From: Candidatus Scalindua sp. SCAELEC01
GTDB lineage: Bacteria > Planctomycetota > Brocadiia > Brocadiales > Scalinduaceae
Direction: 5' to 3'
Assembly (NCBI GenBank): GCA_004282745.1
Contig: SHMT01000008.1
Span: 19,909-51,908 of the forward strand
Length of the DNA stretch: 32,000 bases
Of the stretch, positions 3,303 to 26,744 are shown one piece after another. Each line of letters opens with the position of its first letter. Positions within the stretch are counted from its first letter, which is position 1. The position numbers were made by a program, and so were the translations under genes. Under the pieces are notes generated by a model. It had not been told where the DNA came from. It did no database searches and was given only the letters and a program-made list of their open reading frames with translations.

Positions 3303-6300
3303 CTACTCCTTCTCAGTATAAATCTTCTTGATTATATCTTCATATTCTAGTGGTATTGAAGTATTCTCTATTGCATCATCTTCCGCTTGCTGGGTACTGA
3401 GTTCTGCCTCATCATCGTAACCAACAGTCGGTAACCTCCTTTTCACAGAAGACTCTCCCTTGCCAGAAGATATTGATTCCCTTTTTGTTCCGCTTTCGTC
3501 TTTCGTCCCCTTTACCTTAAGTCCAAACTTTTGAGCATCCGTTGACGAGTCGATTTTTTGAGGTTCGGAAGAGTAGAGCTCGCCCCCCGATTGACTTCCA
3601 CCTGGTCCTTCCGTCTCTTTAATGCTCCCCTCCAGCTGCCTGGCCCCTTTATCTGTCTCTGATTCAACACCCCTCTGTTTCTGCTGCGCTAAATCCTTCA
3701 TATCCTCATGCTTCCCCTCATCTGCACCTTGAGACCCACTCTTACCAGATGAATCAACCCCCATTTGCTTCTCAAGGTCTGATATTTGAGTAGAGAGATC
3801 TTTCATTTGATTTGATATTTCTCTCTTTAAGTCTGCAACATCCATTTTTTCATCTTGAGTACCAGCTTTTTGGCCAGGATCGGAACCAGCCTTTTGCCCC
3901 GCTTTGGTCCCAGATTCTGATCCTGCCTGCTGGCCCGCTTCGCTTCCCGGCTCTTGACCAGCCTTCTGACCCAGTTCGGTCCCCGCCTTCTGGCCACTCT
4001 GACTACCTGATTCCTGACCAGATTCTGTGCCAGACTTTTTGCCAGCTTGGTTTCCCGATTCTTGCCCTGTCTTCTGGCCGGTTTGCTGACCTGCCTCTGC
4101 TCCTGCTTGCTGACCAGCTTCTGCTCCGGCCTGTTGACCCGCTTTCTGTCCGGCCTGTTGACCCGCATCTGCACCTGCCTGTTGACCTGCTTCTGCTCCT
4201 GCCTGTTGACCCGCTTCTGCTCTTGCTTGCTGGCCTGCTTTCTGGCCGGCCTCTTGACCCGCATCTGCACCCGCTTGCTGACCAGCTTTCTGGCCGGCCT
4301 GTTGCCCCGCCTCTGCACCTGCCTGCTGACCCGCTTTCTGCCCAGCCTGTTGACCTGCTTCTGCTCCTGCCTGTTGGCCAGCCTTCTGCCCGGCCTGCTG
4401 CCCTGCCTCTGCTCCTGCCTGCTGACCAGCCTTGTGCCCGGCCTGTTGACCAGCTTCTGCTCCTGCTTGCTGTCCCGCTTGTTGCCCTGCCTCTGCCCCG
4501 GCCTGTTGACCTGCTTTCTGGCCGGCTTCTTGACCCGCTTCTGCTCCGGCCTGTTGCCCTGCCTCTGCCCCTGCCTGCTGGCCTGCTTTCTGTCCAGCTT
4601 GTTGCCCTGCCTCTGCACCAGCCTGTTGACCTGCTTCTGCTCCTGCCTGTTGACCCGCTTTCTGCCCAGCTTGTTGCCCTGCCTCTGCACCCACCTGCTG
4701 ACCCGATTTCTGTTCTGCCTGCTGGCCTGCCTCTGCCCCCGCCTGCTGGCCGGCTTTCTGGCCAGCTTGTTGCCCTGCTTCTACACCAGCCTTCTGACCA
4801 CTCTCACTGTCCGAATCCTGGCCAGATTCTGTGCCTGACTTTTTATCCGCCTCGCTTCCCGATTCCTGTCCAGACTTCTGACCACTCTCACTGCCCGAAT
4901 CTTGACCCGATTCTGTACCGGTCTTTTGACCCGATTCGCTTCCCGATTCCTGTCCAGACTTCTGACCACTCTCACTGCCCGAATCCTGACCCGATTCTGT
5001 GCCTGACTTTTGACCCGATTCGCTTCCCGATTCCTGTCCAGACTCCCGACCACTCTCACTGCCCGAAGACTGGCCCGATTCTGTGCCGGACTCTTGACCC
5101 GCTTCGCTCCCCGATTCCTGTCCAGACTTCGATCCACCATTCTCACCGGCCTCTTTTTGTTCAGCGCCTGCCGTATCTGCATCCATTGGTGTTTGAGATG
5201 CAGATGGACCTGAACCATTTGGACTACCCTCTTCGTTCGAATCCCCTTTGTCTGAATCTTCACCCTTCATTTCTGAGCTACCACCCTGTTGCGATTTGGA
5301 TTCTGGTCCACTTTCCTCTTCCAAATCGGAAGGTGCAGATGAAGATTTTTCAGATTTTCGGGGCTCACTAGTTGGCCCCTCTTGTGATGATTCACTCTGG
5401 GAAGAATCGGAGGTCTCTTTGGACGGAGACGATTCTGTTTCTGCTTGCCCCGTCTTGTTTTGTTGGGCATCACCTTGATCTTTGTTCATATCTTCTATAG
5501 GAATATCCATTGGCGGGGCGCTATTTTTATCTTTATTTGACATGAACAGTTGTGCCAGTTTTTGCAGTAATTTTGACTTAGGCGCCTTGGGTTTCTCCTC
5601 CTCTTGTTTACTCTCAGGTGGTTTTTCTTGAGGAGTCTCTTTGTCTGGAGTGGCAGCATCTGCTGTCTTTGGTTGCTCCTCCTCGTTCTTTGGACTTTCA
5701 GACGGTTCGCTTTTAGGCTTTTCATTCTCCTGTGGGGAAGCATCCGCACTTTTATTCTCCTCACGCTCCTTTCTGTCCGTTGGTTTCTTATCCCTTTCCG
5801 CCGTCTGCTTTGACTGTTTATCTCTCTGTTCGTTCTCTTTTTTATCCAGATCAGAAACTTCTGCATCTTTACTCTTGTTTTCACTACCAGGTTGTGTTTT
5901 ATTCTCAAGATTATTCAGGGTATTGTTAAGTTTACTCAGCAACTCAGAAACCTCTTCTTCCAACGTCTTCGGTCCTTTCTGCTGTTCACTTATCTCCGAT
6001 AGAGACTCTTCCTTGTCTTTATCCTTTTGTGCCTGTAACTGGTTTTTCTCTTCTCCCCCTTGTTCTTGTTTCGTTTTTTCACTCTTGGCATCAGCGAGTT
6101 CACGCTCTTCCCGTTCACTCTGAGACTCTTCTGAGTGCTCCTCTTGTTTCGCCACCTGCTCTTCTTCCGCACTTTTATCCTTCTCCTCTTGGCCCTCAGG
6201 TTGACCAGGCTCTTCTCCCCTCTCTTTTGAGTCCGATATCTCTGCGACTGAATCTCTTATCTCTTGAACAATTTCCACTGTCTTTTCCGGATAGATAATG

Positions 6301-6842
6301 GGAAGAAGAAGCAATAGTAATAGCAGTATGGCGACAGGAATTAATACTTTTGTTACCCCGGGAAGTTTGTGTGGAATGGTCGCCTTTATGCCTTTATCAT
6401 CAAGCTGAGTGGTAATATCAGCAACAAGCATATCTAAAAACCTGTTTGACTCTTCCTGGTCTGCATACTCTAAACCCGTAACAAGTCGCTCCTTAAAATG
6501 CATCTCTTCGTCTAAGAGGCTCGCCGCCTCCAATTTTCCGATCCAATTGATAATAATAAATGCGAGGGTGACAAAGAAATATATCGTGAATGCTGAGATC
6601 AGGATAAGGGGTATGTAAGAGGGTAGCTCGATAAATTTCTGGGCAATAAGTGTGACCAGGGCTATCGTTAGACCAATTGCCAGAACGGTAAAGAGTGCTT
6701 TTTCACACCTAAAAAGGTTGTATCTGAAGCGAACCTTCTCAACTCTCTCTTCAATTTGCTTTTTAGAAGTTTTCACCTCTTGACGGCTCACGTTATTGTC
6801 ATCAATTTCCATATTCTTTTCCTTATTTGCGTATTTTTTCAT
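3303..6842 (-). CDS. Giant membrane-anchored low-complexity protein (three predicted TM helices, then about 950 aa of acidic/polar disorder including [S/A]G-x-x repeats); function unknown
   Basis: A single uninterrupted ORF (maximal 3303-6971, 1222 aa). Hydrophobic segments: ALFTVLAIGLTIALVTLIA, YIPLILISAFTIYFFVTLAFIIINWI and VLIPVAILLLLLLLLPIIY. Probable starts are 6842 (MKKYANK) or 6812 (MEIDDNN, with AAGGA upstream). The first 43 codons of the maximal ORF look non-coding and contain a 9-bp inverted repeat. Confidence 0.75.
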   Translation of the reverse strand: MKKYANKEKNMEIDDNNVSRQEVKTSKKQIEERVEKVRFRYNLFRCEKALFTVLAIGLTIALVTLIAQKFIELPSYIPLILISAFTIYFFVTLAFIIINWIGKLEAASLLDEEMHFKERLVTGLEYADQEESNRFLDMLVADITTQLDDKGIKATIPHKLPGVTKVLIPVAILLLLLLLLPIIYPEKTVEIVQEIRDSVAEISDSKERGEEPGQPEGQEEKDKSAEEEQVAKQEEHSEESQSEREERELADAKSEKTKQEQGGEEKNQLQAQKDKDKEESLSEISEQQKGPKTLEEEVSELLSKLNNTLNNLENKTQPGSENKSKDAEVSDLDKKENEQRDKQSKQTAERDKKPTDRKEREENKSADASPQENEKPKSEPSESPKNEEEQPKTADAATPDKETPQEKPPESKQEEEKPKAPKSKLLQKLAQLFMSNKDKNSAPPMDIPIEDMNKDQGDAQQNKTGQAETESSPSKETSDSSQSESSQEGPTSEPRKSEKSSSAPSDLEEESGPESKSQQGGSSEMKGEDSDKGDSNEEGSPNGSGPSASQTPMDADTAGAEQKEAGENGGSKSGQESGSEAGQESGTESGQSSGSESGRESGQESGSESGQKSGTESGQDSGSESGQKSGQESGSESGQKTGTESGQDSGSESGQKSGQESGSEADKKSGTESGQDSDSESGQKAGVEAGQQAGQKAGQQAGAEAGQQAEQKSGQQVGAEAGQQAGQKAGQQAGAEAGQQAGAEAGQQAGQKAGQQAGAEAGQQAGAEAGQEAGQKAGQQAGAEAGQQAGQQAGAEAGQQAGHKAGQQAGAEAGQQAGQKAGQQAGAEAGQQAGQKAGQQAGAEAGQQAGQKAGQQAGADAGQEAGQKAGQQARAEAGQQAGAEAGQQAGADAGQQAGQKAGQQAGAEAGQQAGAEAGQQTGQKTGQESGNQAGKKSGTESGQESGSQSGQKAGTELGQKAGQEPGSEAGQQAGSESGTKAGQKAGSDPGQKAGTQDEKMDVADLKREISNQMKDLSTQISDLEKQMGVDSSGKSGSQGADEGKHEDMKDLAQQKQRGVESETDKGARQLEGSIKETEGPGGSQSGGELYSSEPQKIDSSTDAQKFGLKVKGTKDESGTKRESISSGKGESSVKRRLPTVGYDDEAELSTQQAEDDAIENTSIPLEYEDIIKKIYTEKE
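3855..5135 (-). repeat. In-frame tandem tetrapeptide-repeat region of the giant ORF (12/24/48-bp periodicity)
   Basis: The protein reads SGSESGQKSGQESGSESGQKSGTESGQD..., then many AGQQAGAEAGQQAGQK units, then mixed S/A units. It ends at the Gln codon 3855-3857 just before DEKMDVADL. This is roughly 100 tetrads of the form [SA]-G-[QSTA]-[QEKD]. Confidence 0.9.
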
Positions 6843-6880
6843 AAAAAGAGAGACATTACCAGTTAAAAAGCGGTAGATCT

Positions 6881-6917
6881 TTACGCATTGACAGCGTTTA
6901 GGAACGATAATGCGTAA
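6881..6917 (-). promoter_or_regulatory. 9-bp inverted repeat TTACGCATT-N19-AATGCGTAA upstream of the likely giant-ORF start (candidate operator or 5'UTR hairpin)
   Basis: Seen directly, 40-75 nt upstream of ATG 6842. It has no known binding-site identity. Confidence 0.2.
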
Positions 6918-7177
6918 AATAACACGCAAGTGGAAGGATTGAATCTCCATTTCAGCATTGATGTAATCCATTAGCCATTTTGGCAGGTGAACATCTGCAA
7001 GTTGAGTAGTGCCAACGAAAACCCTACCCTTTGAAGAAATGGACCTCTCTTTTGGTGAAAAGGAGATATGTCTTTTAATACTAGTTGGGGAGAAAGGAAC
7101 AAATCAGGCTGTAAGAGTAACTGAGCTTATCCTTCGGCACCCGCTGATTGGGCACGTCCCGGCTGAGAGACAGAGCG

Positions 7178-12106: not shown

Positions 12107-12487
12107 ATGTATACGGGTATCGATATTATTGAAGTGAAGAGGATTGAACGGGTCTTTCTCTCCCATGAAGGCTTTGTCAGAAGGGTTTTCACGGAAGATG
12201 AGGTGAAATATTGCCAATCGAAGAGGAACTGTTTCCAGCATTATGCAGTTCGTTTTGCAGCAAAAGAGGCCGTTCTTAAGGCCTTTGGGACAGGCTTAAG
12301 AGAGAGGATGAAGTGGACCGACGTAGAGACACTCAACGAAGAGTCAGGAAAACCGTATGTAAATCTCTATGGCCGGGTTAAAGAGATGGCGATTGAAAAA
12401 AATATCTGTGAGATTTCAATCTCTCTGTCTCATTGCAAAGAATATGCAGTCGCTCACGCATTATTGGTTACACGCAACAATGGTTGA
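12107..12487 (+). CDS. acpS: Holo-[acyl-carrier-protein] synthase (4'-phosphopantetheinyl transferase, AcpS type)
   Basis: 126 aa. GIDIIEVKRIERV, FTEDEVKYC, FAAKEAVLKAFGTG and ISLSHCKEYAVAHALL are the AcpS family blocks. The stop codon TGA (12485-87) lies inside the MITE A3 terminal repeat. Confidence 0.9.
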   Translation: MYTGIDIIEVKRIERVFLSHEGFVRRVFTEDEVKYCQSKRNCFQHYAVRFAAKEAVLKAFGTGLRERMKWTDVETLNEESGKPYVNLYGRVKEMAIEKNICEISISLSHCKEYAVAHALLVTRNNG

Positions 12488-12936: not shown

Positions 12937-14094
12937 TTAAATAATGATCTGGTTTTTCCATAGCAAACGCAAAAACTCCATTGCGGGATAAATATATATA
13001 CCATCCATTTTGGTCACTCTTTCTCCGAGAAAAATCCCTAAACATTTCACTTTCCCTTCACCCAATTCCTCACGTAATCTATGCAACCCTCTGTTATATT
13101 TTCTCTCCCAAACCTTCACGCTTTTTATCTCTATAGCGAGAAACTCATTCGCTTGCTCCAAAAATATGTCTACTTCATTGCCACCGTGGCTTCTCCAATA
13201 ATATAACGGGTATTCATTATCATTATAGTGTAGATAAGCTCGCAATTCGTTTATAATGAACGTCTCAAAAAGAGGGCCCAACTCCTCATGCAATATAGGA
13301 TATGCCAGCCTCCCGGATAAAGCGCGAACAACACCGGAATCAAAAAAATAAAACTTTGGGTGGGCTACCTGCTTTGTAGATGTTTTTAACTTCCATGGAT
13401 AGAGCCAAAACCCGGTTAAAGTGTCTATGAGGATCTCGAAATAGCCTTGTACAGTTTGCCGAGCAACCATTGCGTCTCTTGATATTGAGGATACGTTGGT
13501 TATTTGTCCGTTTTGCCTTGCCGCAACTTCCAAAAATCTTGCAAAATTCCCGATATTTCTGGTTAAAGCTTCCCCCTTTATCTCCTCTTTCAAATAGGTT
13601 TCAGCGTAGGTTTTCAAAAACCGCATGGGCTTTTCCGATAAAAAGGAGAGAGGCAGCATTCCATAAGTAATCTGTTTTTTCAAGTCAAAATCAAATCCAA
13701 CCTCTTTTGAAACAAAAGGAAAAAGATAGAAGGTGATGGCTCTGCCGGCCAATAAATTAACACTCGATCTTCTCAATTTACGAGCGCTTGAACCGGAGAG
13801 AATAAAAAACAGATTTCTATCTTCTATTATGCGATGCACTTCATTAAGCAAGTCCGGAACTTTTTGTATTTCATCAATTACTACCGTAGTCTTAGGCGGT
13901 AAATGTATGGTTTCGTCATAAAGCAGAGAAGGTTGCCTGCTAAATCTGATAACTTCCGCAGTATTTAAAAGGTCATAGGTAATAGCATTGGGGAAATGAT
14001 GTTTGATCCAAGTGGACTTACCTGTACCTCTCGGACCAAGCAAAAAAGCTGAAGAGCTCATTTTTTTTAATACTCTCTTAAACATAGTCGGCAA
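12937..14094 (-). CDS. AAA+ ATPase with C-terminal DUF4143 domain
   Basis: Walker A GPRGTGKST, Walker B VVIDEIQ, and a DUF4143-like C-terminal half (GEALTRNIGNFARFLEVAA..; YYWRSHGGNEVD). The codon at 14094 is TTG; the first ATG is at 14085. Confidence 0.85.
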   Translation of the reverse strand: MPTMFKRVLKKMSSSAFLLGPRGTGKSTWIKHHFPNAITYDLLNTAEVIRFSRQPSLLYDETIHLPPKTTVVIDEIQKVPDLLNEVHRIIEDRNLFFILSGSSARKLRRSSVNLLAGRAITFYLFPFVSKEVGFDFDLKKQITYGMLPLSFLSEKPMRFLKTYAETYLKEEIKGEALTRNIGNFARFLEVAARQNGQITNVSSISRDAMVARQTVQGYFEILIDTLTGFWLYPWKLKTSTKQVAHPKFYFFDSGVVRALSGRLAYPILHEELGPLFETFIINELRAYLHYNDNEYPLYYWRSHGGNEVDIFLEQANEFLAIEIKSVKVWERKYNRGLHRLREELGEGKVKCLGIFLGERVTKMDGIYIYPAMEFLRLLWKNQIII

Positions 14095-15025: not shown

Positions 15026-16492
15026 ATGAAAAAGTTAATTCTCATTAATCCTCACCCCGTTGGTAATGTTGGCGAGGAGAATGTCTCCGTATTAAATCAG
15101 ATGCCCGTAAACCTGGGGTATTTGAAGACGCTGACACCGGATCATTGGGATGTAGATATTATTGACGAGACACAAGAGCTGGCAGTGGATGAAAAGGGTG
15201 AGAACATCTGTTTTGAAAAGCCTGATTTGGTCGGAATTACGTGTGTGAGCTATCAGGCTCATCGGGCATATCAGATAGCTACGGCATGCAAAAAAAACGG
15301 GATACCCGTTATCATGGGCGGTGTACACGCTACAAGTAATCCCGAAGAAGCGGCCCAATATGTTGATTCTGTCATAATAAGAGAGGCAGTTACGATTTGG
15401 GCCGAGATAATTGCTGATTTTGAGAACGGTGCCCTTAAGAAATCATATGATGGCGGCCTCACGCCTATGGAGATGTACAAAGAGCTCTACTCGGATCGAG
15501 AGTTTTTAAAGGAGAAATATAAGTATCGCTATTCCGGCATCATCACGACTGCCGGGTGCCCCTTTAGTTGTGATTTTTGTTCGGTTCCTCAGTTTCAAGG
15601 GAGAAAGTATCGGGAAAGACCGATCGATGATGTGCTCAACGAGCTGGAGAAAATCAAAGGAGAGTATCGGGGCCTTATCCTGACCGATGAAAATTTCTAT
15701 GGACACAGTAAAAAATCAAACGAAAGAGTGCGCACTCTCTTTAAGAAGATGGTAGAGAGAGGCATATATCAGAATTGGTTTGGCTTCACGTCGTTAAACA
15801 TCTATCAAGATGATGAAACATTAGACTACATGGTAAAGAGTGGTTGTGTTGGAGTTCTCATTGGGATTGAATCTATCAATGAAGAGACGTTAAAGACGAT
15901 GAATAAGGGCGTCAACTTGCGCATCACCGTCGACAAATATAAAGAAGCGGTAAAAAATATTCGGAAACATGGTCTTGCAGTATGGGGTACAATGGTTTTC
16001 GGTAATGATGGTGATACACCGGAAGGTTTTAAAGAGGTAGTAGATTTCATTGTTGATGCAAAGATCGACATTATGACCTGTGGTATTTTATGCCCTTTTA
16101 TTAATACCCCCCTATATCTGAGACTTAATGGTGAAAAGAGACTGTTTCGGACAAATTTCCCCGAAGATTGGATCTACTATACTTCGCACCATCTTACCTA
16201 TGTATTAAAACTTTCACTTCAGGAATTCATTGATGGTCTGGAGTATGTCTATGAGAATATCTATTCAACTGATGTGATTAGGGCGAAATTCCGAAATGCA
16301 AAGACGGAGTTAAACAACCTCAACGCCGCTATGTTTGCCTTTCGGGTAAATCTTGACTGGCAATATGTCTTTCACCATTTGTTAGAAAACTTAAGGGAAT
16401 TACAGGCTTCAGGTGTCTATGAAGAGGCACGTGAACGCTACGAAAAAATGAAACGTAGTAAGGATACCGGTTTAGCAAGCGCAAGGTCTTAA
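15026..16492 (+). CDS. Cobalamin (B12)-binding-domain radical SAM enzyme
   Basis: 488 aa. N-terminal Rossmann-like B12-binding region (LINPHP..DLVGITCVSYQAHRAYQIA..PVIMGGVHAT). Radical SAM cluster motif AGCPFSCDFCSVP (Cys178/182/185, nt 15557-15580). Confidence 0.85.
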   Translation: MKKLILINPHPVGNVGEENVSVLNQMPVNLGYLKTLTPDHWDVDIIDETQELAVDEKGENICFEKPDLVGITCVSYQAHRAYQIATACKKNGIPVIMGGVHATSNPEEAAQYVDSVIIREAVTIWAEIIADFENGALKKSYDGGLTPMEMYKELYSDREFLKEKYKYRYSGIITTAGCPFSCDFCSVPQFQGRKYRERPIDDVLNELEKIKGEYRGLILTDENFYGHSKKSNERVRTLFKKMVERGIYQNWFGFTSLNIYQDDETLDYMVKSGCVGVLIGIESINEETLKTMNKGVNLRITVDKYKEAVKNIRKHGLAVWGTMVFGNDGDTPEGFKEVVDFIVDAKIDIMTCGILCPFINTPLYLRLNGEKRLFRTNFPEDWIYYTSHHLTYVLKLSLQEFIDGLEYVYENIYSTDVIRAKFRNAKTELNNLNAAMFAFRVNLDWQYVFHHLLENLRELQASGVYEEARERYEKMKRSKDTGLASARS

Positions 16493-16662
16493 GCAAGGAC
16501 TATTTTTTTCTCCACACAGGTACAAGATTTCTCAAGTAGTGAGGAGCAAATCCGCAGAATATTTTCTCGGAATCAGGTGAGACCAACACTTTTACATTTT
16601 GTGCATACCCTGAGTTTTGAGATACCTATCATATCTTTTGTGTTATTTCTGAAGGAAAAATC

Positions 16663-17871
16663 GTGTCAAAAGTCGTTGTTACGGGTTTGGGATTAGTATT
16701 AGCCAATGGCATTGGAGTTAAGGATGCATGGGAAGCACTCATTCAGGGCAAAGATGGCTCAGGAGAGGTAACCTCATTTGACACCTCACCGTATAAGATC
16801 CATCGTGCCTGTGAAGTGAAGGATTTCAAGATAGATACCACATTTGAAAATGAAACGCCTGCCCATACGATCCACAAGTATGCCTATTCAGCGGCTAAGG
16901 AAGCGTTAGAAGATAGTGGTTTACACAATGTCGCCAAATATGATTGCGAAAGATTTGGAATTGCGATTGGAACCCTTGCCGGGGAACTTCCCCCGTTTGA
17001 ATACCTGTTACGCAACTCCCCTGATGAGAAGGCTAACGGTTTTGACATGAACGTCGCCTTAACATACCCTCCATCCTCAATAACTTCCCTACTCTCCGAA
17101 GATTTTGGTTTTGAAGGCCCGAATATGGTTTCGTTAAATGCATGCTCTTCCGGCAACCACGCTATCGCATGGGCATATGATCTCTTGCTAAACGGGAAAG
17201 TTGACGTAATGCTCGTAGGCGGCGGTGAACTAATACCGCAAACGGAGTTTACCCATTTTCACAATTTAAAGGCGCTCACTCCCGAAAAATGTCGCCCTTT
17301 TGACAAAGAGAGGAAGGGACTCATTATTGGTGAAGGTGCAGGGATTATGGTAATAGAGAACCTCGATTTTGCAAAAAAAAGAGGGGCGAACATTTATGCG
17401 GAATTAAAGAGCTATGGAATGAGTTGTGACGGTCACCATATGACAGCCCCACATCCAGAGGGGGCGGGAGCAATCAGGTCAATGATGGACGCTCTATCAG
17501 TTGCACAGCTCTCCTATAAGGACATTGATTACGTTAACGCGCATGGTACTGGCACGCCCTTGAATGATCGGATGGAAACGATGGCCATTAAATCTGTCTT
17601 TAAGGAGAGGGCAAAGCAGATTCCCGTTAGTTCAATAAAATCTATGATTGGCCATACCATGGGTGCGGCAAGTGCAATCGAGTCGGTCACAAGCTGCCTT
17701 TCGATCAAGAACAATATAGTTCCCCCTACAATAAACTACGAAACCCCTGATCCCGAATGTGATTTAGATTATGTGCCCAACGAGGGGAGAGAACTCAGAG
17801 TCAATTGCGTATTGAATAACTCCTTCGCCTTCGGAGGAAACAATGTCACCAATATTTTTAGTAGGCTTTAG
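16663..17871 (+). CDS. fabF: Beta-ketoacyl synthase, FabF/KAS-II type with an intact Cys-His-His triad
   Basis: GTG start with GAAGGA 7 nt upstream. Active-site NACSSG (Cys161, TGC 17143-45), GHHMTAP and NAHGTGT, and a C-terminal NSFAFGGNN. Confidence 0.9.
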   Translation: MSKVVVTGLGLVLANGIGVKDAWEALIQGKDGSGEVTSFDTSPYKIHRACEVKDFKIDTTFENETPAHTIHKYAYSAAKEALEDSGLHNVAKYDCERFGIAIGTLAGELPPFEYLLRNSPDEKANGFDMNVALTYPPSSITSLLSEDFGFEGPNMVSLNACSSGNHAIAWAYDLLLNGKVDVMLVGGGELIPQTEFTHFHNLKALTPEKCRPFDKERKGLIIGEGAGIMVIENLDFAKKRGANIYAELKSYGMSCDGHHMTAPHPEGAGAIRSMMDALSVAQLSYKDIDYVNAHGTGTPLNDRMETMAIKSVFKERAKQIPVSSIKSMIGHTMGAASAIESVTSCLSIKNNIVPPTINYETPDPECDLDYVPNEGRELRVNCVLNNSFAFGGNNVTNIFSRL

Positions 17872-17893: not shown

Positions 17894-19123
17894 ATGAATA
17901 AAAAAACGGTAATTACGGGTATTGGAGTTGTTTCTCCAATTGGTATCGGCCATCAAGATTTCTGGAAAAATCTCGTTTCGGGTAATTCCGGCATTACCCC
18001 TATGGAATCATTGGATCTTTCTAAATATGAATGCAAAAATGGGGCAGAGGTAAAGAATCTAGATCCAGCGGAGTTTCTCGGTCGTAAAGGACTCAGATAC
18101 CTACACAAGGGAACTAAATTTCTTGCCTCCAGTATAAAATTGGCGCTTGATGACGCAAACCTGAACATAGATGATGAGATATCAAGCCGGACGGGCATTC
18201 TCATAGGGACATCCCTTGGTAATTTTTCTCAAACCACCGATTATTTTCATGATATAGTTCGGGAGGAGCCTTCTGAACTCTCGCCAATGCAGAGCTATGA
18301 TGTTGCACTCAATTCGTCAATAAACTACGCCTCGGTCTTTTTCAAGATAAAGGGATTTGCCAGGACAATCTCTTCCGGTTTTACGTCGGGAATTGACGCT
18401 ATTGGTAATGCACATAGGCTGATTCAGAATGGAAAAGCAGACGTAATCATCGCTGGTGGTGTTGAACAGATATCGTTGGACCTCTACATGATCTTTCTCC
18501 TGAGAAAGATGTTGTCCGGTTCACATGGTGCAGACAGTGAGATCAGCATGCCATTTGATAAGAGACGGAATGGCTTCATAATGAGTGAAGGCAGTTACGT
18601 ATTCGTAATGGAGGAGCTTGATTTTGCCTTGAGTCGTGGCGCAAAGGTGTATGGTGAGGTATCCGGGTTTGGAACTATTTTTGCTGGAAACAAAAAATAC
18701 GATACGGGAAGAAGGGTCGAAAAGGCCCAGTCGGCAATGAAAGCGTGTATGGATGACGCAAACATTTCTCTTCAAGATCTTGACCTTATTCAGGCCAATG
18801 GAAATTCAGGCCGACTATCAGACCATATTGAGGCACAGGCTATTTTCGAGTTGTTTGAAAAAAGAGGGGACGAGATACCCGTATGTGCAGTTAAATCTAT
18901 TGTGGGTGAGTGCTATGGCGCCTCCGGGGCAATGCAAACCGCAGCAACGGCACTCGCAATTCAAAACAGTCTCATACCTCCGACAATCAACTGTGAAGAG
19001 AAGGACCCTGAGTGTAACGTAAACATAATTCATCAGAAACAAGCGTGTAAGATAAACACGGCACTTGTCAATTCGTTTGATTATACAGGCAATAACTCCT
19101 GTTTAATGGTCAAGAAATTATGA
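17894..19123 (+). CDS. Ketosynthase paralog lacking the catalytic triad (chain-length-factor-like partner subunit)
   Basis: Thiolase/KS fold is clear (VITGIGVVSPIGIG; ADVIIAGGVE; NSFDYTGNN). The Cys position reads SGFTSG (Phe163, TTT 18380-82). His1 aligns to Lys (GNKKYD) and His2 to Asn (QANGNSG). The N-terminus MNKKTVITGIG fits the family; an alternative upstream ATG lies at 17843. Confidence 0.85.
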   Translation: MNKKTVITGIGVVSPIGIGHQDFWKNLVSGNSGITPMESLDLSKYECKNGAEVKNLDPAEFLGRKGLRYLHKGTKFLASSIKLALDDANLNIDDEISSRTGILIGTSLGNFSQTTDYFHDIVREEPSELSPMQSYDVALNSSINYASVFFKIKGFARTISSGFTSGIDAIGNAHRLIQNGKADVIIAGGVEQISLDLYMIFLLRKMLSGSHGADSEISMPFDKRRNGFIMSEGSYVFVMEELDFALSRGAKVYGEVSGFGTIFAGNKKYDTGRRVEKAQSAMKACMDDANISLQDLDLIQANGNSGRLSDHIEAQAIFELFEKRGDEIPVCAVKSIVGECYGASGAMQTAATALAIQNSLIPPTINCEEKDPECNVNIIHQKQACKINTALVNSFDYTGNNSCLMVKKL

Positions 19124-21165
19124 GTGAGCTATTTGAACCCATTAACCTAGGTAGCATTAAGGTAAAAAACAGACTTGCCATGTCTGCAATGGACCTCGGA
19201 TTTACCTCCGACGGTTCGGTAAATGAGCGTTTCATCGATTTCTATGTAGAGAGGGCCCGGGGAGGAGTAGGCTTAATCGTAATAGGAGGTTGCTATCCTG
19301 AGATGAATGGCAAGGTGTGGAAGAGTATCATTGGCCTGGACAAGGATGATTTTATACCGGGTTTAAAAAAGTTTGCAGATACAATGCACAAGTATGATGT
19401 TAAGGTTGCCGCTCAACTCCTTCATGGCGGCAGAAGCGCCTCCTCTTTCTTTACAAAAATGCGGCCTGTCTCAGCATCAAGTTTGGCACATGTCAACATC
19501 AAACAGGCACCTCACGCACTCACCATACCGGAGATCAAGAGAGTCATTAAGGGATTTGTTGATGCAACCATGCGATTAAAGAAGGCCGGCTTTGATGCGG
19601 TAGAGATCCACGGAGGCATGGGCTATTTGATCAATCAATTCCTTACCAGGGCTACGAATGAGCGAAGGGACCGATATGGAGGGAGCCTCAAAAACAGGAT
19701 AAATTTTGCCAGAGAAATTGTGATTGCAATCAAAGATAAAATTGGTAAGAACTTTCCCATCATATTCCGCTTGTCCGGAGACGATTTTGTTGATAACGGA
19801 CTCAAGATCGATGAGAGTATTGAGATTGCAAAGGAGCTGGAAAAGGCGGGTGTAGATGCATTCAATATATCTCCCGGTTGGCATGAGAGTCGGACCCCCA
19901 TAATGCTTATGTCCATCCCAAGAATGTCCTACATATTCTTAGCAGAAAAAATGAAGGACCAGCTCCAAGTACCCGTCATTGGATCGGTGAGAGTAAACGA
20001 TTTGGCATTAGCTGAAGAGATTCTGGATAATGGGCAGTCTGACATGGTATCGATAGGAAGGCCCCTCATCGTCGACCCGGAATTACCCAAAAAGTACAAG
20101 AAGAAACAGTTCGAAGATATTAGAAGATGTATTGCCTGCAACCAAGGCTGTTTCGATTCGTTGTTAAACTTTAAATCGGTAAGCTGCATCTACAATGTGA
20201 GGGCCGGAAGAGAGCGGGAGTTAAAGATCAGGAAGGCCAAGAAAATGAAGAGGGTAATGGTGATCGGTGGTGGTCCCGGAGGTCTCGAAGCGGCAAGGGT
20301 TGCCGCACTACGAGGGCACGAGGTCCATCTGTATGAGAAAAATAGTGTCCTTGGCGGACAACTAAGATATGCCTATCTACCTCCTGGAAGGGGAGAGATA
20401 GAAAACGTCATTACCTTTCTCGAGGCACAGATAAAAAAATTAAACGTAAAAATTCAACTACACAAGAAGGTCGATACGAAGGAAATTAAGAATTTAAAAC
20501 CCGATGCCGTAATTGCCGCTATTGGAGGTAGCCCCATCATACCTCCTATTCCGGGCATCAGAGAGAAGAATGTCGTTGTGGCCGAGGATATCTTTGATAA
20601 CCGGGTAAAGATCGGAAAAGATGTGGTCATTATCGGTGGCGGGACGATTGGGTGTGAAGTCGCCTTGCACATTGCAAAAATGGGAGCAATGAATCCTGAG
20701 GTGGCGTGCTATCTCCTGCGAAATGGGGTCATAAGCGGTGATGAGGCGGTAGCGTATACCTCACGAGGAAAAAGGAATATTACAATCTTAGAGATGAAGA
20801 ACAAGATTGGGGGCGCATTTGGCATCTCAACTCGCTGGGTCATCATAAAACAGGTGAAAGATGCGGGGGTTGAGTGTATGAACGGCTTGCATGTCAAAGA
20901 GATCAAGACGAGCAAAAATGGAAAGAGGTCATCCAAGGCAAAATCTCAAGATACAAAAATCTGCGTAACCTTTGAAAAAGAGGAGAAGGTAAATTCGATT
21001 TATGCCGATACCGTCGTCATAGCAGTTGGATATAAACCCAATCAAGACCTGCTCAGAAAGTTAGATGGAACAGTAGACGAATTTTATACAATAGGAGATT
21101 GTGTAACGGTCCGGACTGCCCTTGAAGCCATCCACGAGGGATTTGAAGCGGGTTTGAAAGTTTAA
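19120..21165 (+). CDS. FadH-like (2,4-dienoyl-CoA reductase family) Fe-S flavoprotein: OYE-type TIM barrel plus a FAD/NAD(P)-binding domain
   Basis: 681 aa. OYE-like N-terminal domain (HGGMGYLINQFL, RYGGSL.NR), a 4Fe-4S motif CIACNQGC..C (Cys337/340/344/356, nt 20128-20187), then VIGGGPGGLEAA and a second IIGGGTIGCE dinucleotide fold. The start overlaps the upstream stop (ATGA). Confidence 0.85.
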   Translation: MSELFEPINLGSIKVKNRLAMSAMDLGFTSDGSVNERFIDFYVERARGGVGLIVIGGCYPEMNGKVWKSIIGLDKDDFIPGLKKFADTMHKYDVKVAAQLLHGGRSASSFFTKMRPVSASSLAHVNIKQAPHALTIPEIKRVIKGFVDATMRLKKAGFDAVEIHGGMGYLINQFLTRATNERRDRYGGSLKNRINFAREIVIAIKDKIGKNFPIIFRLSGDDFVDNGLKIDESIEIAKELEKAGVDAFNISPGWHESRTPIMLMSIPRMSYIFLAEKMKDQLQVPVIGSVRVNDLALAEEILDNGQSDMVSIGRPLIVDPELPKKYKKKQFEDIRRCIACNQGCFDSLLNFKSVSCIYNVRAGRERELKIRKAKKMKRVMVIGGGPGGLEAARVAALRGHEVHLYEKNSVLGGQLRYAYLPPGRGEIENVITFLEAQIKKLNVKIQLHKKVDTKEIKNLKPDAVIAAIGGSPIIPPIPGIREKNVVVAEDIFDNRVKIGKDVVIIGGGTIGCEVALHIAKMGAMNPEVACYLLRNGVISGDEAVAYTSRGKRNITILEMKNKIGGAFGISTRWVIIKQVKDAGVECMNGLHVKEIKTSKNGKRSSKAKSQDTKICVTFEKEEKVNSIYADTVVIAVGYKPNQDLLRKLDGTVDEFYTIGDCVTVRTALEAIHEGFEAGLKV

Positions 21166-21169
21166 AATT

Positions 21170-21970
21170 ATGAAAGACATACGAATGAACAGGGGTGATG
21201 ATTCCGGATCTCAGCACCTCGAATATGAAGAGGTAGAGCTAAAAAACAACAGATATGCCGGAGTCATTAAGATAAAGAAGCCACCCCGGAACTCTATTGG
21301 TTCCTGGTTGCTAGATGCACTCTATGACAGGATTGATTCATATGAAAAAGATGACACGATAGCGGCCATCATTATCACGAGTAGTATACGGGGGGTCTTT
21401 TGTGATGGTGCAGATAGAGATGAGCTGTTCGGTTCATGGATATCGGGTTTAGTGGCTGAAAAAAACTACGATAGATTTGTCAGGGCTCATGAGATGTTTA
21501 GGGAGATAGAGAATTGCCAAAAACCGCTCATTGCCGCACTGAATGGTGTTACCATAGGGGCAGGACTGGAACTCGCCCTCTTATGCGACATCCGCATAGC
21601 CTCAGAAATCGCGTTTTTCAGTCTCCCTGAGGCAAAACCTGAATTGAGCATAATACCGGGGCTTGGAGGGACTATCAGACTTCCGAAGATAATCGGTACC
21701 GCACGGGCCAAAGAGATGTTGTATTCGGGAAAGATGATTCGTGCGAAAACGGCACTGCAGTGGGGTTTGGTGAACAAACTTGCACCCGTTAGGGAGGTAC
21801 TTAAAGAGGCGCTCGATTACGCCAAGGTGCTGGCTGAGAACAACGGCAAGGCAATACAGACAATGAAAAAGTGTATAAACTTTGCAATGGAACACGATAC
21901 AAGCGAGGGTATCAAATATGAAGTTGGTCTCTTTGCGGAGATGATGCGAGAGAAACTGGTAAAGACGTAG
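21170..21970 (+). CDS. Enoyl-CoA hydratase/isomerase (crotonase) family protein with both catalytic Glu positions retained
   Basis: ALNGVTIGAGLELALLCDIRIAS and SLPEAKPELSIIPGLGGT are the crotonase oxyanion-hole and catalytic blocks. Only 4 nt separate it from the upstream stop. Confidence 0.85.
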   Translation: MKDIRMNRGDDSGSQHLEYEEVELKNNRYAGVIKIKKPPRNSIGSWLLDALYDRIDSYEKDDTIAAIIITSSIRGVFCDGADRDELFGSWISGLVAEKNYDRFVRAHEMFREIENCQKPLIAALNGVTIGAGLELALLCDIRIASEIAFFSLPEAKPELSIIPGLGGTIRLPKIIGTARAKEMLYSGKMIRAKTALQWGLVNKLAPVREVLKEALDYAKVLAENNGKAIQTMKKCINFAMEHDTSEGIKYEVGLFAEMMREKLVKT

Positions 21971-22033: not shown

Positions 22034-22771
22034 ATGAAAGACAAAGTTGCAATAGTGACAGGCGGCACAAGAGGTATCGGTCGGGCAATAGTCCTTGAAT
22101 TAGCACGGAATGGGTGTAATGTTGCCTTTAATTACGCAAAGAGTGAGGAGCTGGCAAAAACCCTTGTAACAGAAGTTGAGTCACTCGGTGTCAAGGCCTT
22201 GGCAAAACAGGCAGACGTAGTAGATTTCGAGGCAGCAAAGAGTATGGTGGCTGAGGTTAAGGAAGAGTTCGGACAGATAGATTTTTTGATCAACAATGCC
22301 GGTGTGACCAGGGACAAGCTCCTCGCCTTAATGAAGGAGAGCGATTGGGATGAGGTGATCAACACCAACCTCAAAAGCGTCTATAACTTTTCCAAGGCCA
22401 TAATTATGACCATGGTCAAACAGAAGAGCGGGAACATCCTCAACATTACGTCAGTAAGTGGAATCGCCGGAGTAGCAGGACAGACGAACTATTCCGCTTC
22501 GAAGGCAGGCGTCATCGGCTTTACCAAGGCCCTGGCCAAAGAAGTTGGCAAGGCAAAAATAAATGTAAACGCGATTGCGTGTGGCTTCATTGAGACAGAC
22601 ATGACCGCCTCGCTCCCGGAAGAGTATAAGAGTAAGATGATAGATATGACATCTCTCAAACGGTTTGGAAACCCCGAGGAGATAGCCAAGATTGCGAAAT
22701 TCATGCTCTCAGAAGAGGCAAAATATATTACCGGACACGTTCTTACCGTTGATGGCGGTTTGGCGCTATAA
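22034..22771 (+). CDS. fabG: 3-oxoacyl-[ACP] reductase (SDR, FabG type)
   Basis: TGGTRGIGRA, NNAG and YSASKAG motifs, 245 aa. GGAGG lies upstream of the ATG. Confidence 0.9.
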   Translation: MKDKVAIVTGGTRGIGRAIVLELARNGCNVAFNYAKSEELAKTLVTEVESLGVKALAKQADVVDFEAAKSMVAEVKEEFGQIDFLINNAGVTRDKLLALMKESDWDEVINTNLKSVYNFSKAIIMTMVKQKSGNILNITSVSGIAGVAGQTNYSASKAGVIGFTKALAKEVGKAKINVNAIACGFIETDMTASLPEEYKSKMIDMTSLKRFGNPEEIAKIAKFMLSEEAKYITGHVLTVDGGLAL

Positions 22772-23142: not shown

Positions 23143-23454
23143 ATGCTATTCTTGTTAAAGGTCCAGATAAAGAAAGTACCCGATATTCCCTTAAAAGATT
23201 TCCTGGGATTTGTGGTCAAGGAGTGGGAATATTTTTTGAGGATGAAAAGAAGGGGCAAGATCCTTGCCGGAGGTAAGTTAGCCGGAGGCAGAGGAGCTGC
23301 CGCCATTATTGAGGCTGACTCACATGAAGAATTCGACCAGATCGTGGGAAACCTGCCACTCTTTCCTTTTTTTACTGACATAGAAGTAACACCGCTCATT
23401 TCCACTGAAAAAGCCTTGACTGACGTTAAACGGGTCCATTCGCTTATGAAGTAG
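23143..23454 (+). CDS. Muconolactone delta-isomerase-like (ferredoxin-like fold) small protein
   Basis: 103 aa. MLFLLKVQI start and GNLPLFPFFTDIEVTPL resemble the MIase family block LPLFPY.DIEV.PL, from memory only. Confidence 0.5.
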   Translation: MLFLLKVQIKKVPDIPLKDFLGFVVKEWEYFLRMKRRGKILAGGKLAGGRGAAAIIEADSHEEFDQIVGNLPLFPFFTDIEVTPLISTEKALTDVKRVHSLMK

Positions 23455-23761
23455 AATCAATCGTAAACATAACGATTTAATAAGAACTTTGAGAAACGAA
23501 AATATATATTATTAGTGACGCATGTGTCCTTTGTTGGTATACTGAGGACTAGTTATTAACGTGGCCTTAACTTTTCTTAGGGATTTTTCTCAAGAAAAAC
23601 TTTAATAGCCACGCAAACTGTACATAAGAAGCTTCACACTCAGGCCCTGAGGGGAATCGGGAGGAATATCCGTGACTCACACCCGGTGTGTTGCACAAAA
23701 AATAATTAGCCGAATGTCGGCTTTCGCTATCTAAAGAATCAGTGTGCTTGGTTTTTGATAG

Positions 23762-23767
23762 TATAAT
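23762..23767 (+). promoter_or_regulatory. Perfect TATAAT -10 box about 30 nt upstream of the RRM gene start
   Basis: The hexamer was read directly. No convincing -35 element. Confidence 0.25.
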
Positions 23768-23798
23768 CTCAGTCAACGCACAAAAAAGAGGAAGATAC

Positions 23799-24071
23799 AT
23801 GAATATTTATGTGGGAAATCTGCCATACAGTGTAACTGAAGCCGATCTGAGGGAGGCTTTTTCTGGGTTTGGTGAAATATCGAACGCATCTCTTATCAGC
23901 GATAAGTTTTCAGGCAAATCAAAAGGATTTGGATTTATTGAGATGCCAAACGACGAAGAGGCGAATGCCGCGATTCAGGCCCTCAATGAAAGTGACTTGC
24001 AAGGAAGGAATATCAAGGTAAATCAGGCGAAACCAAAAGGTGACCCCTCTGAACGCAGGCCAAGATATTAA
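23799..24071 (+). CDS. RRM-domain RNA-binding protein (short-tail type)
   Basis: RNP2 MNIYVGNL and RNP1 KGFGFIEM, 90 aa. AAGAGGAAG RBS. The ORF-track start at 23742 adds 19 unlikely residues. Confidence 0.9.
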   Translation: MNIYVGNLPYSVTEADLREAFSGFGEISNASLISDKFSGKSKGFGFIEMPNDEEANAAIQALNESDLQGRNIKVNQAKPKGDPSERRPRY

Positions 24072-24101
24072 CCGGTAACAATGTCATCTACTGGAAATCA
24101 A

Positions 24102-24299
24102 ATATACTAAAACCGATCTGGTTTTCGGTTTTACCTGTCCGAACGGTTGACAGGCCGGGCTGGCCGAAAACCAAATTTTGGTTGCCTGCCCGGCATGTTG
24201 TTCAGGCGGGCCCTTTTCCCCGGACAAAAGGTGCCGGGGACTTTCCTCGTTGAATTGTATCTCGGATTTTATCCGAAAACCACTATGAGATGAGTATAT
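24102..24299. mobile_element. MITE family B, copy B2 (long form, forward)
   Basis: It runs ATATACTAAAACCGATCTGGTTTTCGG ... CCGAAAACCACTATGAGATGAGTATAT over 198 bp. It sits between the RRM gene and the helicase start. Confidence 0.8.
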
Positions 24300-24392
24300 T
24301 ATTTCCTCCCATTATTCATTATGCTTCTTTCCTCCTATAATTGCTGACTGTTCATCAGGTAAGTACAAATAATTATTAAGGTGATTTAAATT

Positions 24393-25721
24393 ATGAAAAC
24401 CTTTGCAAATCTTGGTTTGACTGAAAATTTACTGCGTGCCGTTAAAGACAAAGGCTACGAGATGCCTTCTCCCATACAGGTCCGCGCCATCCCTGCCATA
24501 TTGACCGGTAAAGATATACTTGCCGCAGCGCAAACGGGTACGGGTAAAACAGCAGGTTTCACCCTACCGATGGTACAGATCCTCGATCAGACAGTATCTG
24601 ATGGGGGACGTCCGATCAGGGCACTCGTTTTGACTCCAACCCGGGAGCTAGCAGCACAGGTCCAAGAGAGCATCAAGGCCTATGGTAAATACCTAACCCT
24701 TAAAAGCATGGTTGTTTTTGGAGGTGTGAATATCAAACCACAGATTGATCAATTAAAAAAAGGGGTGGATATTCTGGTTGCTACACCTGGTCGATTACTA
24801 GATCTCTGCAGCCAGAAGGCATGCAGATTGAACCAGGTCAACATGCTGGTCCTTGATGAAGCAGACCGTATGCTAGACATGGGTTTCATTCATGACATCC
24901 GCAGAGTTATCAAACTGTTGCCACCAAAACGGCAAACACTCCTCTTTTCAGCCACCTTTTCAACAGAGATTCGTGCCATGACACGCGAGTTTCTTGTCAA
25001 ACCCACCACCATTGAAGTAACACCAGAATACAAGGCTGCACAGACTGTCTCCCAGTGTGCATATCGATGTGACGCCAAGGCAAAGACCAGCCTTGTTACC
25101 CATCTGATCAACGAAGGAAACTGGGCCCAGGTACTGATTTTCACGCGTACCAAACATGGTGCCAATCGCCTGAGCGTTAAACTTGCACAGGCAGGCATTA
25201 AGACCAATGCCATACATGGCAACAAGACACAGCCCTCTCGCATCAAGGCCCTGGACGATTTAAAAAAACGTAAGATTCGTGTCCTTGTAGCCACTGATAT
25301 TGCCGCACGCGGTCTGGATATTATCCAGTTGCCGCATGTTGTCAATTATGATCTGCCCAATGTACCGGAGGATTATGTCCACCGCATTGGTAGGACAGGA
25401 AGAGCTGGTATGGAAGGCGAAGCTATTTCCCTGGTCTGCAATGAAGAGCGGGCTTTTCTACGCGGTATCGAAAAACTGACTGGTCAATCGATTAAGCTAT
25501 TGGATGTGTCAGGTTTCGAGCCAACCATCTGGCCGAGAAGAGCCCCAACTGCCAGTGAAGTGCAAAAAACTGCCGCAATACGCAAAGAAACCGCACGTCA
25601 GGCACGTGGCCCTCGCAGACAAACTGCAACCAGAACTTCAACCAGAGAGAGCACTGCTACGGGTAAAAAACCCAGCAGAAGCGGTAATCAAAAACGGAAA
25701 TTTCCTGGTGGAAAAGGCTAG
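24393..25721 (+). CDS. rhlE: DEAD-box ATP-dependent RNA helicase (RhlE-like, basic C-terminal tail)
   Basis: Q motif (F..LGL...L..A....GY..PSPIQ), [21 protein letters not shown] and [10 protein letters not shown], plus an Arg/Lys/Thr-rich tail. Confidence 0.9.
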
Positions 25722-25746
25722 TTGTATCCCCTAAAGAGATGGCCTG

Positions 25747-26187
25747 TTACCTTCCCCTTCCACCCCTGCCACCACTGTACCCTCCCTTGCCACCACCATA
25801 TCCGCCTTTTTTGCTACCACTGTATCCTCCCTTGCCACCACCATATCCGCCCTTTCTGCTACCGCCATATCCACCCTTACCTCCACCCTGTCCGCCACCG
25901 AAACCTCCGCCGTACCCACCACCTGAACCTCCTCCAAAGTTTCCGGTACGAGGACGTGCTTCATTCACGTTAAGCGTTCTTCCCTTTAACTCTTTACCGT
26001 TCAACCCATCAATTGCCGCTTGTCCTTCAGCTTTAGATGGCATTTCAACGAATGCAAATCCTTTTGGCTGACCACTAAACTTATCTTTAATGATATTAAT
26101 TGATTCAATCTTACCGAATGGTTCACAAGCAAGCCGTAAATCTTCTTCGGTGGTGTCGTATGACATATTTCCAACATAAATATTCAT
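25747..26187 (-). CDS. RRM-domain RNA-binding protein with a long glycine/tyrosine-rich C-terminal tail
   Basis: MNIYVGNMSY (RNP2) and KGFAFVEM (RNP1), then GGGSGGGYGGGFGGGQGGGKGGYGG... The ATG at 26187 is preceded by AAAGGAAAAG. Confidence 0.9.
   Translation of the reverse strand: MNIYVGNMSYDTTEEDLRLACEPFGKIESINIIKDKFSGQPKGFAFVEMPSKAEGQAAIDGLNGKELKGRTLNVNEARPRTGNFGGGSGGGYGGGFGGGQGGGKGGYGGSRKGGYGGGKGGYSGSKKGGYGGGKGGYSGGRGGRGR
25769..25858 (-). repeat. Two tandem 45-bp coding repeats (GGYGGGKGGYSGSKK-type unit) in the Gly-rich tail
   Basis: Units 25769-25813 and 25814-25858 are near-identical, and a degenerate third unit follows. Confidence 0.7.
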
Positions 26188-26250
26188 TCTCTTTTCCTTT
26201 CTCACAATAAAGTTTTACTTAAGATATCATTTTTACAATGGGCATATATC

Positions 26251-26288
26251 AAAGCCCCCGATACCCTTTCATTGATATTGGGGGCTTT
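26251..26288 (-). terminator. Candidate terminator hairpin downstream of csp (9-bp stem AAAGCCCCC/GGGGGCTTT, 20-nt loop)
   Basis: Read directly. It has short T runs on both strands. The large loop makes it weak. Confidence 0.3.
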
Positions 26289-26398
26289 TACGTAATCATT
26301 ACAATAATATTTTGCAACTACCCTATATTAATTATTACTTACAACTCTCTTTCGATAGATTATGCAGTATAAATATATGAGGATATCTTAAAACATAT

Positions 26399-26599
26399 TT
26401 ATATTTTGACAACGTTCGAGGCTTTGCTGCCCTTTTGGCCCTCTTCGACTTCAAACTCTACCTGGTCCCCTTCTGAAAGGCTTTTAAAGCCATCAGACTG
26501 GATTGCGGTATGGTGAACAAAGACATCGTCTCCGTTTTCCTGAGAAATGAAGCCAAATCCCTTTGAGTCGCTAAACCACTTAACTGTTCCATTTTGCAT
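26399..26599 (-). CDS. csp: Cold-shock domain protein (CspA family)
   Basis: [18 protein letters not shown] (RNP1) and VFVHH (RNP2), 66 aa. AAGGGGGTGA RBS. The upstream 49 codons of the ORF-track call are non-coding leader. Confidence 0.92.
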
Positions 26600-26630
26600 A
26601 CTGAAAATCACCCCCTTAAAATAGTAAAAA

Positions 26631-26678
26631 GGTATAAAAATAAAAAAAGGCTGCAAGATTGGAAACCTTGCAGCCTTT
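26631..26678 (-). terminator. Intrinsic-terminator-like hairpin plus T-tract inside, or just upstream of, the csp leader
   Basis: On the minus strand, a 12-bp stem AAAGGCTGCAAG/CTTGCAGCCTTT with a 9-nt loop is followed by TTTTTTTATTTTTA. It ends about 32 nt before the csp ATG. Confidence 0.5.
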
Positions 26679-26744
26679 ATACAAACAAATATATATCGAA
26701 CGATACAACTACCAACTTGAACCACATAGTAACACACATTAAGC

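Follow-up and report, generated by a model that had tools for sequence, protein, structure and literature searches.

Two gene clusters of Kuenenia stuttgartiensis are the closest described counterparts of the locus considered here. The first, kuste2802-2805, is proposed as a unit for ladderane lipid synthesis by Rattray et al. (2009; PMC2649909), who suggest that Kuste2803 might catalyse 'cyclisations or oxidative cascades' during that synthesis. Javidpour et al. (2016; PMC4790861) describe 2802 as an acyl carrier protein (ACP) synthase, 2803 as an S-adenosylmethionine (SAM) radical enzyme, 2804 as FabF and 2805 as a non-canonical FabB, and list Kuste2803 among 34 candidate genes expressed in E. 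coli, with some soluble protein obtained. A 2022 review of Cbl-radical SAM enzymes names Kuste2803 as a potential cyclobutane-forming catalyst, and a sequence-similarity network places the ladderane candidate with BchE and HpnJ in the main cluster (PMC9204698). The second cluster, Cluster I (kuste3603-3608), comprises amxACP, amxFabZ, amxFabF2, amxFabFmut, PDH and a radical SAM (rSAM) gene and is reported to be highly expressed in Kuenenia. Its ketosynthase (KS) pair, sister to that of the first cluster, is shown to be a KS/CLF-like heterodimer in a 2026 preprint (bioRxiv 10.64898/2026.05.19.726425), and papers from 2023 to 2026 state that the ladderane ring-forming enzymes have not yet been identified (PMC10139942, PMC13459092, bioRxiv 10.64898/2026.05.19.726425). 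Here we analyse a stretch of 32,000 nucleotides from Candidatus Scalindua sp. SCAELEC01 (contig SHMT01000008.1, positions 19,909 to 51,908; hereafter the window, with positions counted from its first nucleotide) and, within it, a gene for a B12-binding-domain rSAM enzyme followed by lipid-type genes. The gene is identified below as the Scalindua-type ortholog of Kuste2803; the window itself thus adds one more ortholog to a gene and a ladderane hypothesis that are already known and have been published since 2009.

The 488-residue product of the open reading frame, which starts with MKKLILINPHP as its orthologs do, matched the Pfam B12-binding family (PF02310) with 44.4 bits against a cut-off of 32.1 and the Radical_SAM family (PF04055) with 78.8 bits against 29.5. 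The three cysteines of its CPFSCDFC sequence (C178-x3-C182-x2-C185) are the only invariant cysteines across 60 aligned homologs, which argues for a single Fe-S site and gives no sign of an auxiliary cluster; G98-G99-x-H101 and other residues of the B12-type N-terminal domain are invariant in the same alignment. An AlphaFold2 model (pLDDT 94.7) combines a five-stranded parallel Rossmann-like N-terminal domain with a radical SAM barrel and a predicted helical C-terminal region of the protein's own (aa 398-487). When this model was compared with solved structures by Foldseek, six B12-domain rSAM enzymes were matched with probability 1.0, E values of 1e-15 to 1e-19, TMq of 0.58-0.68 and 14-19% identity: AprD4 (6fd2; TMq 0.68) came first, and TsrM (6wte), MgmA (9ccb), OxsB (5ul4), CysS (9n1b) and TokK (7kdx) were also found, the cobalamin-binding structures at TMq 0.58-0.65, close to the value for AprD4. 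These enzymes share the two-domain fold and the CxxxCxxC motif with the window protein, whereas they act on other substrates, and the helical C-terminal region is the window protein's own. Pfam, the position of the motif and the structural comparison therefore agree with the original prediction made for this DNA, which had recognised an N-terminal B12-binding fold and a CxxxCxxC motif, and by domain, motif and fold the protein is a class B (B12-binding-domain) rSAM enzyme, an assignment that confirms the class and not the reaction.

The proteins closest to the window rSAM protein are from Candidatus Scalindua (82% identity), followed by those of other Brocadiales. A Kuenenia genome (G018) carries a gene whose product is 75% identical over the full length and which is flanked by acpS, a KS gene and a gene for a dead KS; the latter bears Phe163/Asn298/Asn300/Cys302/Glu333, the Kuste2805 signature of Table 2 in PMC2649909. 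This synteny, the dead-KS signature and the published gene list together identify the window gene as the Scalindua-type ortholog of Kuste2803. Identity to Kuste3608 of Cluster I and to a second copy in the same Scalindua genome is much the same (55% and 53%, respectively), and these proteins fall into a separate clade, which we call type B, type A being that of Kuste2803. When 103 proteins were placed in a maximum-likelihood tree, SH-aLRT supports were 100 for clade A, 96 for its Brocadiales subclade, 93 for clade B and 95 for A and B together, the nearest protein outside both types being 41-43% identical. Types A and B are two anciently duplicated B12-domain rSAM enzymes. Another Kuenenia protein, P0080 (55% identity), was rejected as the ortholog: it lies within Cluster I and groups with the Scalindua genome's second copy, that is, with type B.

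Both types are close to universal in the order. Of the 61 Brocadiales genomes searched, 59 carry both type A (68-94% identity) and type B (52-57%), among them all 44 of good quality (at least 90% complete); the two genomes with no match are 82% and 61% complete. In a sample of Planctomycetota, both were present in 16/16 Brocadiales vs 0/285 other genomes. Some Brocadiales of family f2 have three to four copies of the B12-rSAM gene. Kuste3608 resembles the window protein in architecture and length, in adjoining a KS/dead-KS pair and in being universal in the Brocadiales searched; it differs in coming last in its cluster, behind a phytoene-desaturase-like gene, and in its partners, which are ACP and FabZ rather than the acpS, FadH, crotonase (ECH), FabG and muconolactone-isomerase-fold (MIase) genes that accompany the window gene. 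On contig C19 the Scalindua type B copy has the same setting, with the arrangement ACP-FabZ-KS-KS-PDH-rSAM.

Comparison of the window with related loci shows acpS-rSAM-KS-deadKS, equivalent to kuste2802-2805, to be a conserved unit. KS1 lies directly downstream of the rSAM gene in all 29 related loci, and KS1 and the dead KS2 are both present in the six loci read further; co-occurrence with the KS pair, which the original prediction had proposed as a check, is thus borne out. The same prediction had made the rSAM gene the first of its operon. This is correct for the window as it stands and does not hold for the ancestral arrangement, since acpS is found directly upstream on the same strand in 28 of the 29 related loci, the lone exception being a contig end. 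In the window acpS is 2.5 kb upstream, separated from the rSAM gene by non-coding sequence and an opposite-strand DUF4143 ATPase gene; in none of the 29 related loci was a match to this gene found at the corresponding place, between acpS and rSAM. The ancestral unit is accordingly headed by acpS, which an insertion has displaced in the window genome. Relative to the Kuste2803 cluster, then, the window has the same neighbours, namely acpS, an active KS and a dead KS that shows identical Cys->Phe, His->Asn and His->Glu losses; it differs in the displaced acpS and in extending into FadH-like, crotonase, FabG and MIase genes.

These four accessory genes were not found among the candidates named in the accessible parts of the 2009 and 2016 papers (PMC2649909, PMC4790861). 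In Scalinduaceae and a single genus of family f4 the complete set comes after the KS pair, and partial sets do so in three other Brocadiales families; the FadH-like gene adjoins the KS pair in five of the seven Brocadiales loci compared, the window included. Kuenenia and Brocadia keep the orthologs (62-75% identity) elsewhere in the genome, in Kuenenia grouped two by two (OYE with ECH, FabG with MIase). The MIase-fold gene is co-located with the cluster in genomes G001 and G055 as well as in two non-anammox genomes described below. In one genus of the Kuenenia/Brocadia family (L054; also L039 and L040), the FadH-like protein gave two overlapping matches (aa 1-113 and aa 110-681), which suggests a frameshift or an assembly error, and an additional 1-1.4 kb or so lies between the rSAM gene and KS1 (L054, G055:C1: 14704-16721 and 10870-12253).

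Type A and B modules are physically fused in bacteria that are not anammox bacteria. A metagenome-assembled genome (MAG) of Binatia (locus L060) carries, in one run, ACP-FabZ-KS-KS-rSAM-rSAM-rSAM(A)-KS-KS-MIase-ECH-SDR-ACP-FabH-AcpS-KS; its assignment rests on RpoB, which shares 92% identity with a protein from a 'Candidatus Binatia bacterium' (G061). A metagenome contig (L061) reads ACP-FabZ-KS-KS-PDH-rSAM(B)-rSAM-rSAM(A)-KS-KS-ECH, and in a Blastocatellia MAG one contig carries KS-KS-rSAM(A)-DUF374-rSAM(B) and another KS-deadKS-FadH-ECH-FabG-MIase in the gene order of the window. The type A and B orthologs found in Binatia and Blastocatellia are at 53-58% identity, and hydrazine synthase alpha (HZS_alpha) was not found in either genome. 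A search of genome contigs that started from aligned type A proteins of bacteria outside Brocadiales returned, among the matches listed, mostly homologs of 28-35% identity from many phyla. The presence of both modules in one operon or locus outside anammox bacteria argues that the two enzymes share one pathway, and carriers outside Planctomycetota weaken, at the gene level, the idea that these genes are unique to ladderane producers. The fused operons hold three tandem B12-rSAM paralogs rather than two (L060, 7054-11449; L061, 5586-10082); the third kind is about 500-512 residues long, and P0115, P0117 and P0121, of similar length, branch off to the side within type B in the tree.

Within class B, the window protein could be assigned to no curated family. 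All curated B12-rSAM models gave scores 4-10x below their cut-offs, which, together with the tree, places the protein outside every clade of known function; phylogenetic placement, a check named in the original prediction, has thus not moved it into an unrelated family. The best curated hidden Markov model (HMM) match, to the radical SAM core only, was the PhpK family (TIGR04479; 105 vs 600), yet the protein is not a member. BchE (TIGR02026; 90.8 bits vs 481), HpnJ (TIGR03471; 84.1 vs 577.6) and the hopanoid methylase HpnR (TIGR04367; 60.6 vs 650) were likewise rejected, as were BzaD, AprD4 and MiaB/RimO, whose cut-offs lie far above the scores obtained, and HpnP was absent from the best 25 of 27 HMM matches. 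BchE and HpnJ, non-methylating enzymes of cyclisation or ring contraction, are among the best of these matches and, like OxsB, set a precedent for ring chemistry in the class, although their substrates are tetrapyrroles and hopanoids and the window protein does not belong with them. TIGR04072 ('lipid biosynthesis B12-binding/radical SAM protein', rSAM_ladder_B12) has the same domain class and a name that also refers to lipid clusters; here too the window protein, at 75.3 bits vs 360, is far under the cut-off. The best TIGR04072 match of the Scalindua genome is a different gene (C59:42757-44097), which at 315.5 bits falls just under the cut-off. About 25 matches to B12-binding rSAM queries were counted in this genome, several of them grouped on contig C88.

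We consider it probable that the type A enzyme performs radical chemistry on a carrier-tethered acyl chain, as one step towards ladderane or ladderane-precursor fatty acids and in series with type B of Cluster I. In such a scheme, a [4Fe-4S] cluster on C178/C182/C185 would cleave SAM reductively, and the resulting 5'-deoxyadenosyl radical would abstract a hydrogen from an unactivated carbon of a phosphopantetheine- or ACP-tethered acyl chain. The KS/CLF-like heterodimer encoded next door would build the chain, on which the FadH-like reductase, the crotonase, FabG and the MIase-fold protein would then act, and the substrate radical, with or without cobalamin, would form or rearrange a C-C bond or else be methylated. 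A carrier-tethered substrate is supported by the tight and ancient linkage of the rSAM gene to a phosphopantetheinyl transferase gene and a KS/dead-KS pair, and by the fold matches to CysS and TokK, whose crystal structures contain pantetheinylated ligands. The argument that a B12-rSAM enzyme is foreign to the normal fatty-acid cycle, and hence a likely source of unusual carbon-skeleton chemistry, was made in the original prediction and holds. Its stronger wording, that this gene is the best candidate for such chemistry, coincides with the standing hypothesis of the field on Kuste2803.

Several observations weigh against this proposal: (i) AprD4, the top structural match, is a B12-domain enzyme that works without cobalamin, and use of cobalamin by the window protein is a prediction only; (ii) the lipid cluster of the window has no ACP gene; (iii) scores so far under all curated cut-offs mean that a reaction type is not transferable by homology; (iv) the Binatia and Blastocatellia carriers are not known ladderane makers, and the product may be something else or a precursor only; (v) no experiment on record ties any gene of the cluster to ladderanes and, to our knowledge, there is no genetic system for anammox bacteria; (vi) a ladderane product is not reported, in the accessible text, from the expression of the 34 genes in E. 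coli (PMC4790861), and according to a later paper such expression gave no polyunsaturated fatty acids either (PMC10139942). Between ring closure, rearrangement, ligation and methylation, sequence alone cannot decide.

Methylation is the alternative that survives best, and we regard it as a real, if minor, possibility. The protein would then be a conventional class B methyltransferase in which methylcobalamin passes SAM-derived methyl groups to unactivated ACP-bound carbons, perhaps several in turn and divided among paralog A, paralog B and the third one, so that the skeleton would derive partly from methyl carbons and not from direct radical cyclisation. Most characterised B12-domain rSAM enzymes methylate, among them the structural neighbours TsrM, MgmA, CysS and TokK. 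CysS and TokK methylate iteratively, and the pantetheinylated ligands in their crystals suit this alternative as well as the radical scheme. The best curated match is a P-methyltransferase subfamily, though far under its cut-off; GG-x-H is an invariant feature of the B12 domain; and the fused operons, with as many as three paralogs in tandem, fit repeated similar steps. Isotope labelling, in addition, gave no proposable mechanism for the ladderane part, the linear part agreeing with the canonical route to fatty acids, whereas methylated or cyclopropyl intermediates were not detected in anammox bacteria (PMC10139942). The shortfall in HMM scores also counts against this alternative, as does the fact that the non-methylating BchE, HpnJ, OxsB and AprD4 score or match about as well as the methylases.

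It is also conceivable, though unlikely in our view, that the cluster is not ladderane-specific and makes another ACP-derived lipid or polyketide-like metabolite common to anammox bacteria, some Binatia and Acidobacteriota, the rings being formed by other enzymes. The A and B orthologs that accompany KS pairs, ECH, SDR and MIase in MAGs of Binatia and Blastocatellia with no HZS_alpha found speak for this, and the roughly 25 further B12-rSAM-like matches of the Scalindua genome could supply the ring chemistry; the accessible report of the 2016 heterologous expression, with no ladderane product, agrees (PMC4790861). Yet the distribution within the Planctomycetota sampled, with every good-quality Brocadiales genome positive and none of the 285 others, fits the known distribution of ladderanes, the non-anammox carriers may make related lipids, and the high expression reported for Cluster I in Kuenenia speaks against it too. 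That the N-terminal domain is a vestigial Rossmann fold in a cobalamin-independent enzyme, one that would act like AprD4 as a dehydratase or isomerase and take a hydroxy- or enoyl-acyl intermediate as substrate, is improbable: AprD4 is the top match, no DxHxxG histidine-ligand motif is visible on reading aa 1-60 and the cluster is without a FabZ-type dehydratase of its own by Pfam, but most class B enzymes bind cobalamin without a histidine ligand, the Pfam B12-binding score exceeds its cut-off, the N-domain residues including G98-G99-x-H101 are invariant in 60 homologs and the cobalamin-binding structures match nearly as well as AprD4.

Table 1. Coordinates of the rSAM gene, its domains and the surrounding cluster in the window.
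Feature	Position	Strand	Evidence
acpS (holo-ACP synthase), kuste2802 counterpart	12107..12487	+	Pfam ACPS PF01648, 70.4 bits
DUF4143/AAA_14 ATPase gene, within the insertion between acpS and the rSAM gene	12937..14094	-	Pfam
B12-binding-domain rSAM enzyme, type A, Kuste2803 ortholog	15026..16492	+	Pfam, tree, synteny
B12-binding (Rossmann-like) domain, aa 27-124	15104..15397	+	PF02310, invariant columns, model
Radical SAM core, aa 172-342	15539..16051	+	PF04055
CxxxCxxC (C178, C182, C185), [4Fe-4S]/SAM cluster motif	15557..15580	+	Sequence and 60-homolog alignment
170-nt spacer	16493..16662	+	ORF ends
Candidate stem-loop, arms 16565-16577 and 16609-16622	16565..16622	+	Conserved in two Scalinduaceae genera
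KS1, FabF-like ketosynthase, Cys-His-His intact, GTG start 16663, kuste2804 counterpart	16663..17871	+	Pfam/HMM, alignment
KS2, dead CLF-like ketosynthase (Cys->Phe, His->Asn, His->Glu), kuste2805 counterpart	17894..19123	+	Pfam, alignment
FadH/OYE-type flavoenzyme, 2,4-dienoyl-reductase-like	19120..21165	+	Pfam Oxidored_FMN and Pyr_redox_2
Crotonase-family enoyl hydratase/isomerase (ECH)	21170..21970	+	Pfam; co-located in relatives
FabG-type 3-oxoacyl reductase	22034..22771	+	TIGR01830, 313 bits vs cut-off 297.75
Muconolactone-isomerase-fold protein (MIase), travels with the cluster	23143..23454	+	Pfam MIase

The remaining features of the locus are listed in Table 1. The KS2 reading frame is open from 17843, the alignment of its orthologs beginning at the ATG at 17894. 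Between the rSAM gene and KS1, the gap of 170 bp given in the original prediction was recovered exactly; its length differs among relatives, and no promoter-like or terminator-like site was found on its plus strand. A candidate stem-loop of 13 pairs with a variable loop sequence lies about 40-100 nt upstream of the KS1 start. In an alignment of only seven sequences, 92% of cells were paired vs 20-54% for slid controls, with one compensatory pair, which faintly suggests a conserved element. RNAalifold detected no common structure in 17 Scalinduaceae spacers, since those of one genus are unrelated to the rest and rich in repeats; folded as a whole, the spacer had a minimum free energy no better than that of shuffles (z 0.26), and an Rfam scan of the window gave no match.

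Beyond the cluster, hydrazine synthase alpha (PF18582, 75.6 bits) is encoded on the same contig about 10.6 kb past the end of the window (C18:62498-62809), and a Hao-like multihaem cytochrome lies at its right end (31299-31973, minus strand), which places the lipid cluster close to core anammox catabolic genes in this Scalindua genome. Together with the closest protein matches, these two genes mark the source of the window as an anammox bacterium of the marine type. Right after the lipid cluster, positions 23742-26746 hold an RNA-handling run consisting of an RRM-domain protein, a RhlE-type DEAD-box helicase and a cold-shock-domain protein. Towards the left end, a reading frame of 1222 codons with no Pfam match (3303-6971, minus strand) stands upstream of a MoxR-type AAA ATPase gene and a DUF58 gene; it covers the stretch 4001-5000, which has a GC content of 0.61 and a strongly negative AT skew in a window that is otherwise at about 0.42 GC.

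How biology reaches linearly fused cyclobutane rings is a two-decade-old question, and the gene family described here is among the few standing candidates. The Scalindua-type arrangement reveals the accessory enzymes of the Kuste2803 module, namely the FadH-like reductase, crotonase, FabG and MIase-fold protein that are scattered in Kuenenia and Brocadia. The fused operons of non-anammox bacteria offer alternative gene sets for heterologous reconstitution and make the question somewhat more approachable, and with them the genes can no longer, in the strict sense, be called 'unique to ladderane producers'. As a more speculative reading, on which our doubts outweigh our confidence, the two anammox clusters (kuste2802-2805 with FadH/ECH/FabG/MIase, and Cluster I, kuste3603-3608) might be halves of one ancestral ACP-dependent pathway in which two or three paralogous B12-rSAM enzymes act in series, a pathway complete as a single operon in Binatia and other uncultured bacteria and present as nearby modules in the Blastocatellia MAG. 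If so, anammox bacteria would not be alone in having fatty acids of the ladderane type or close cyclised relatives of them, and the compact fused operons would provide a new and more tractable route to reconstituting the chemistry.

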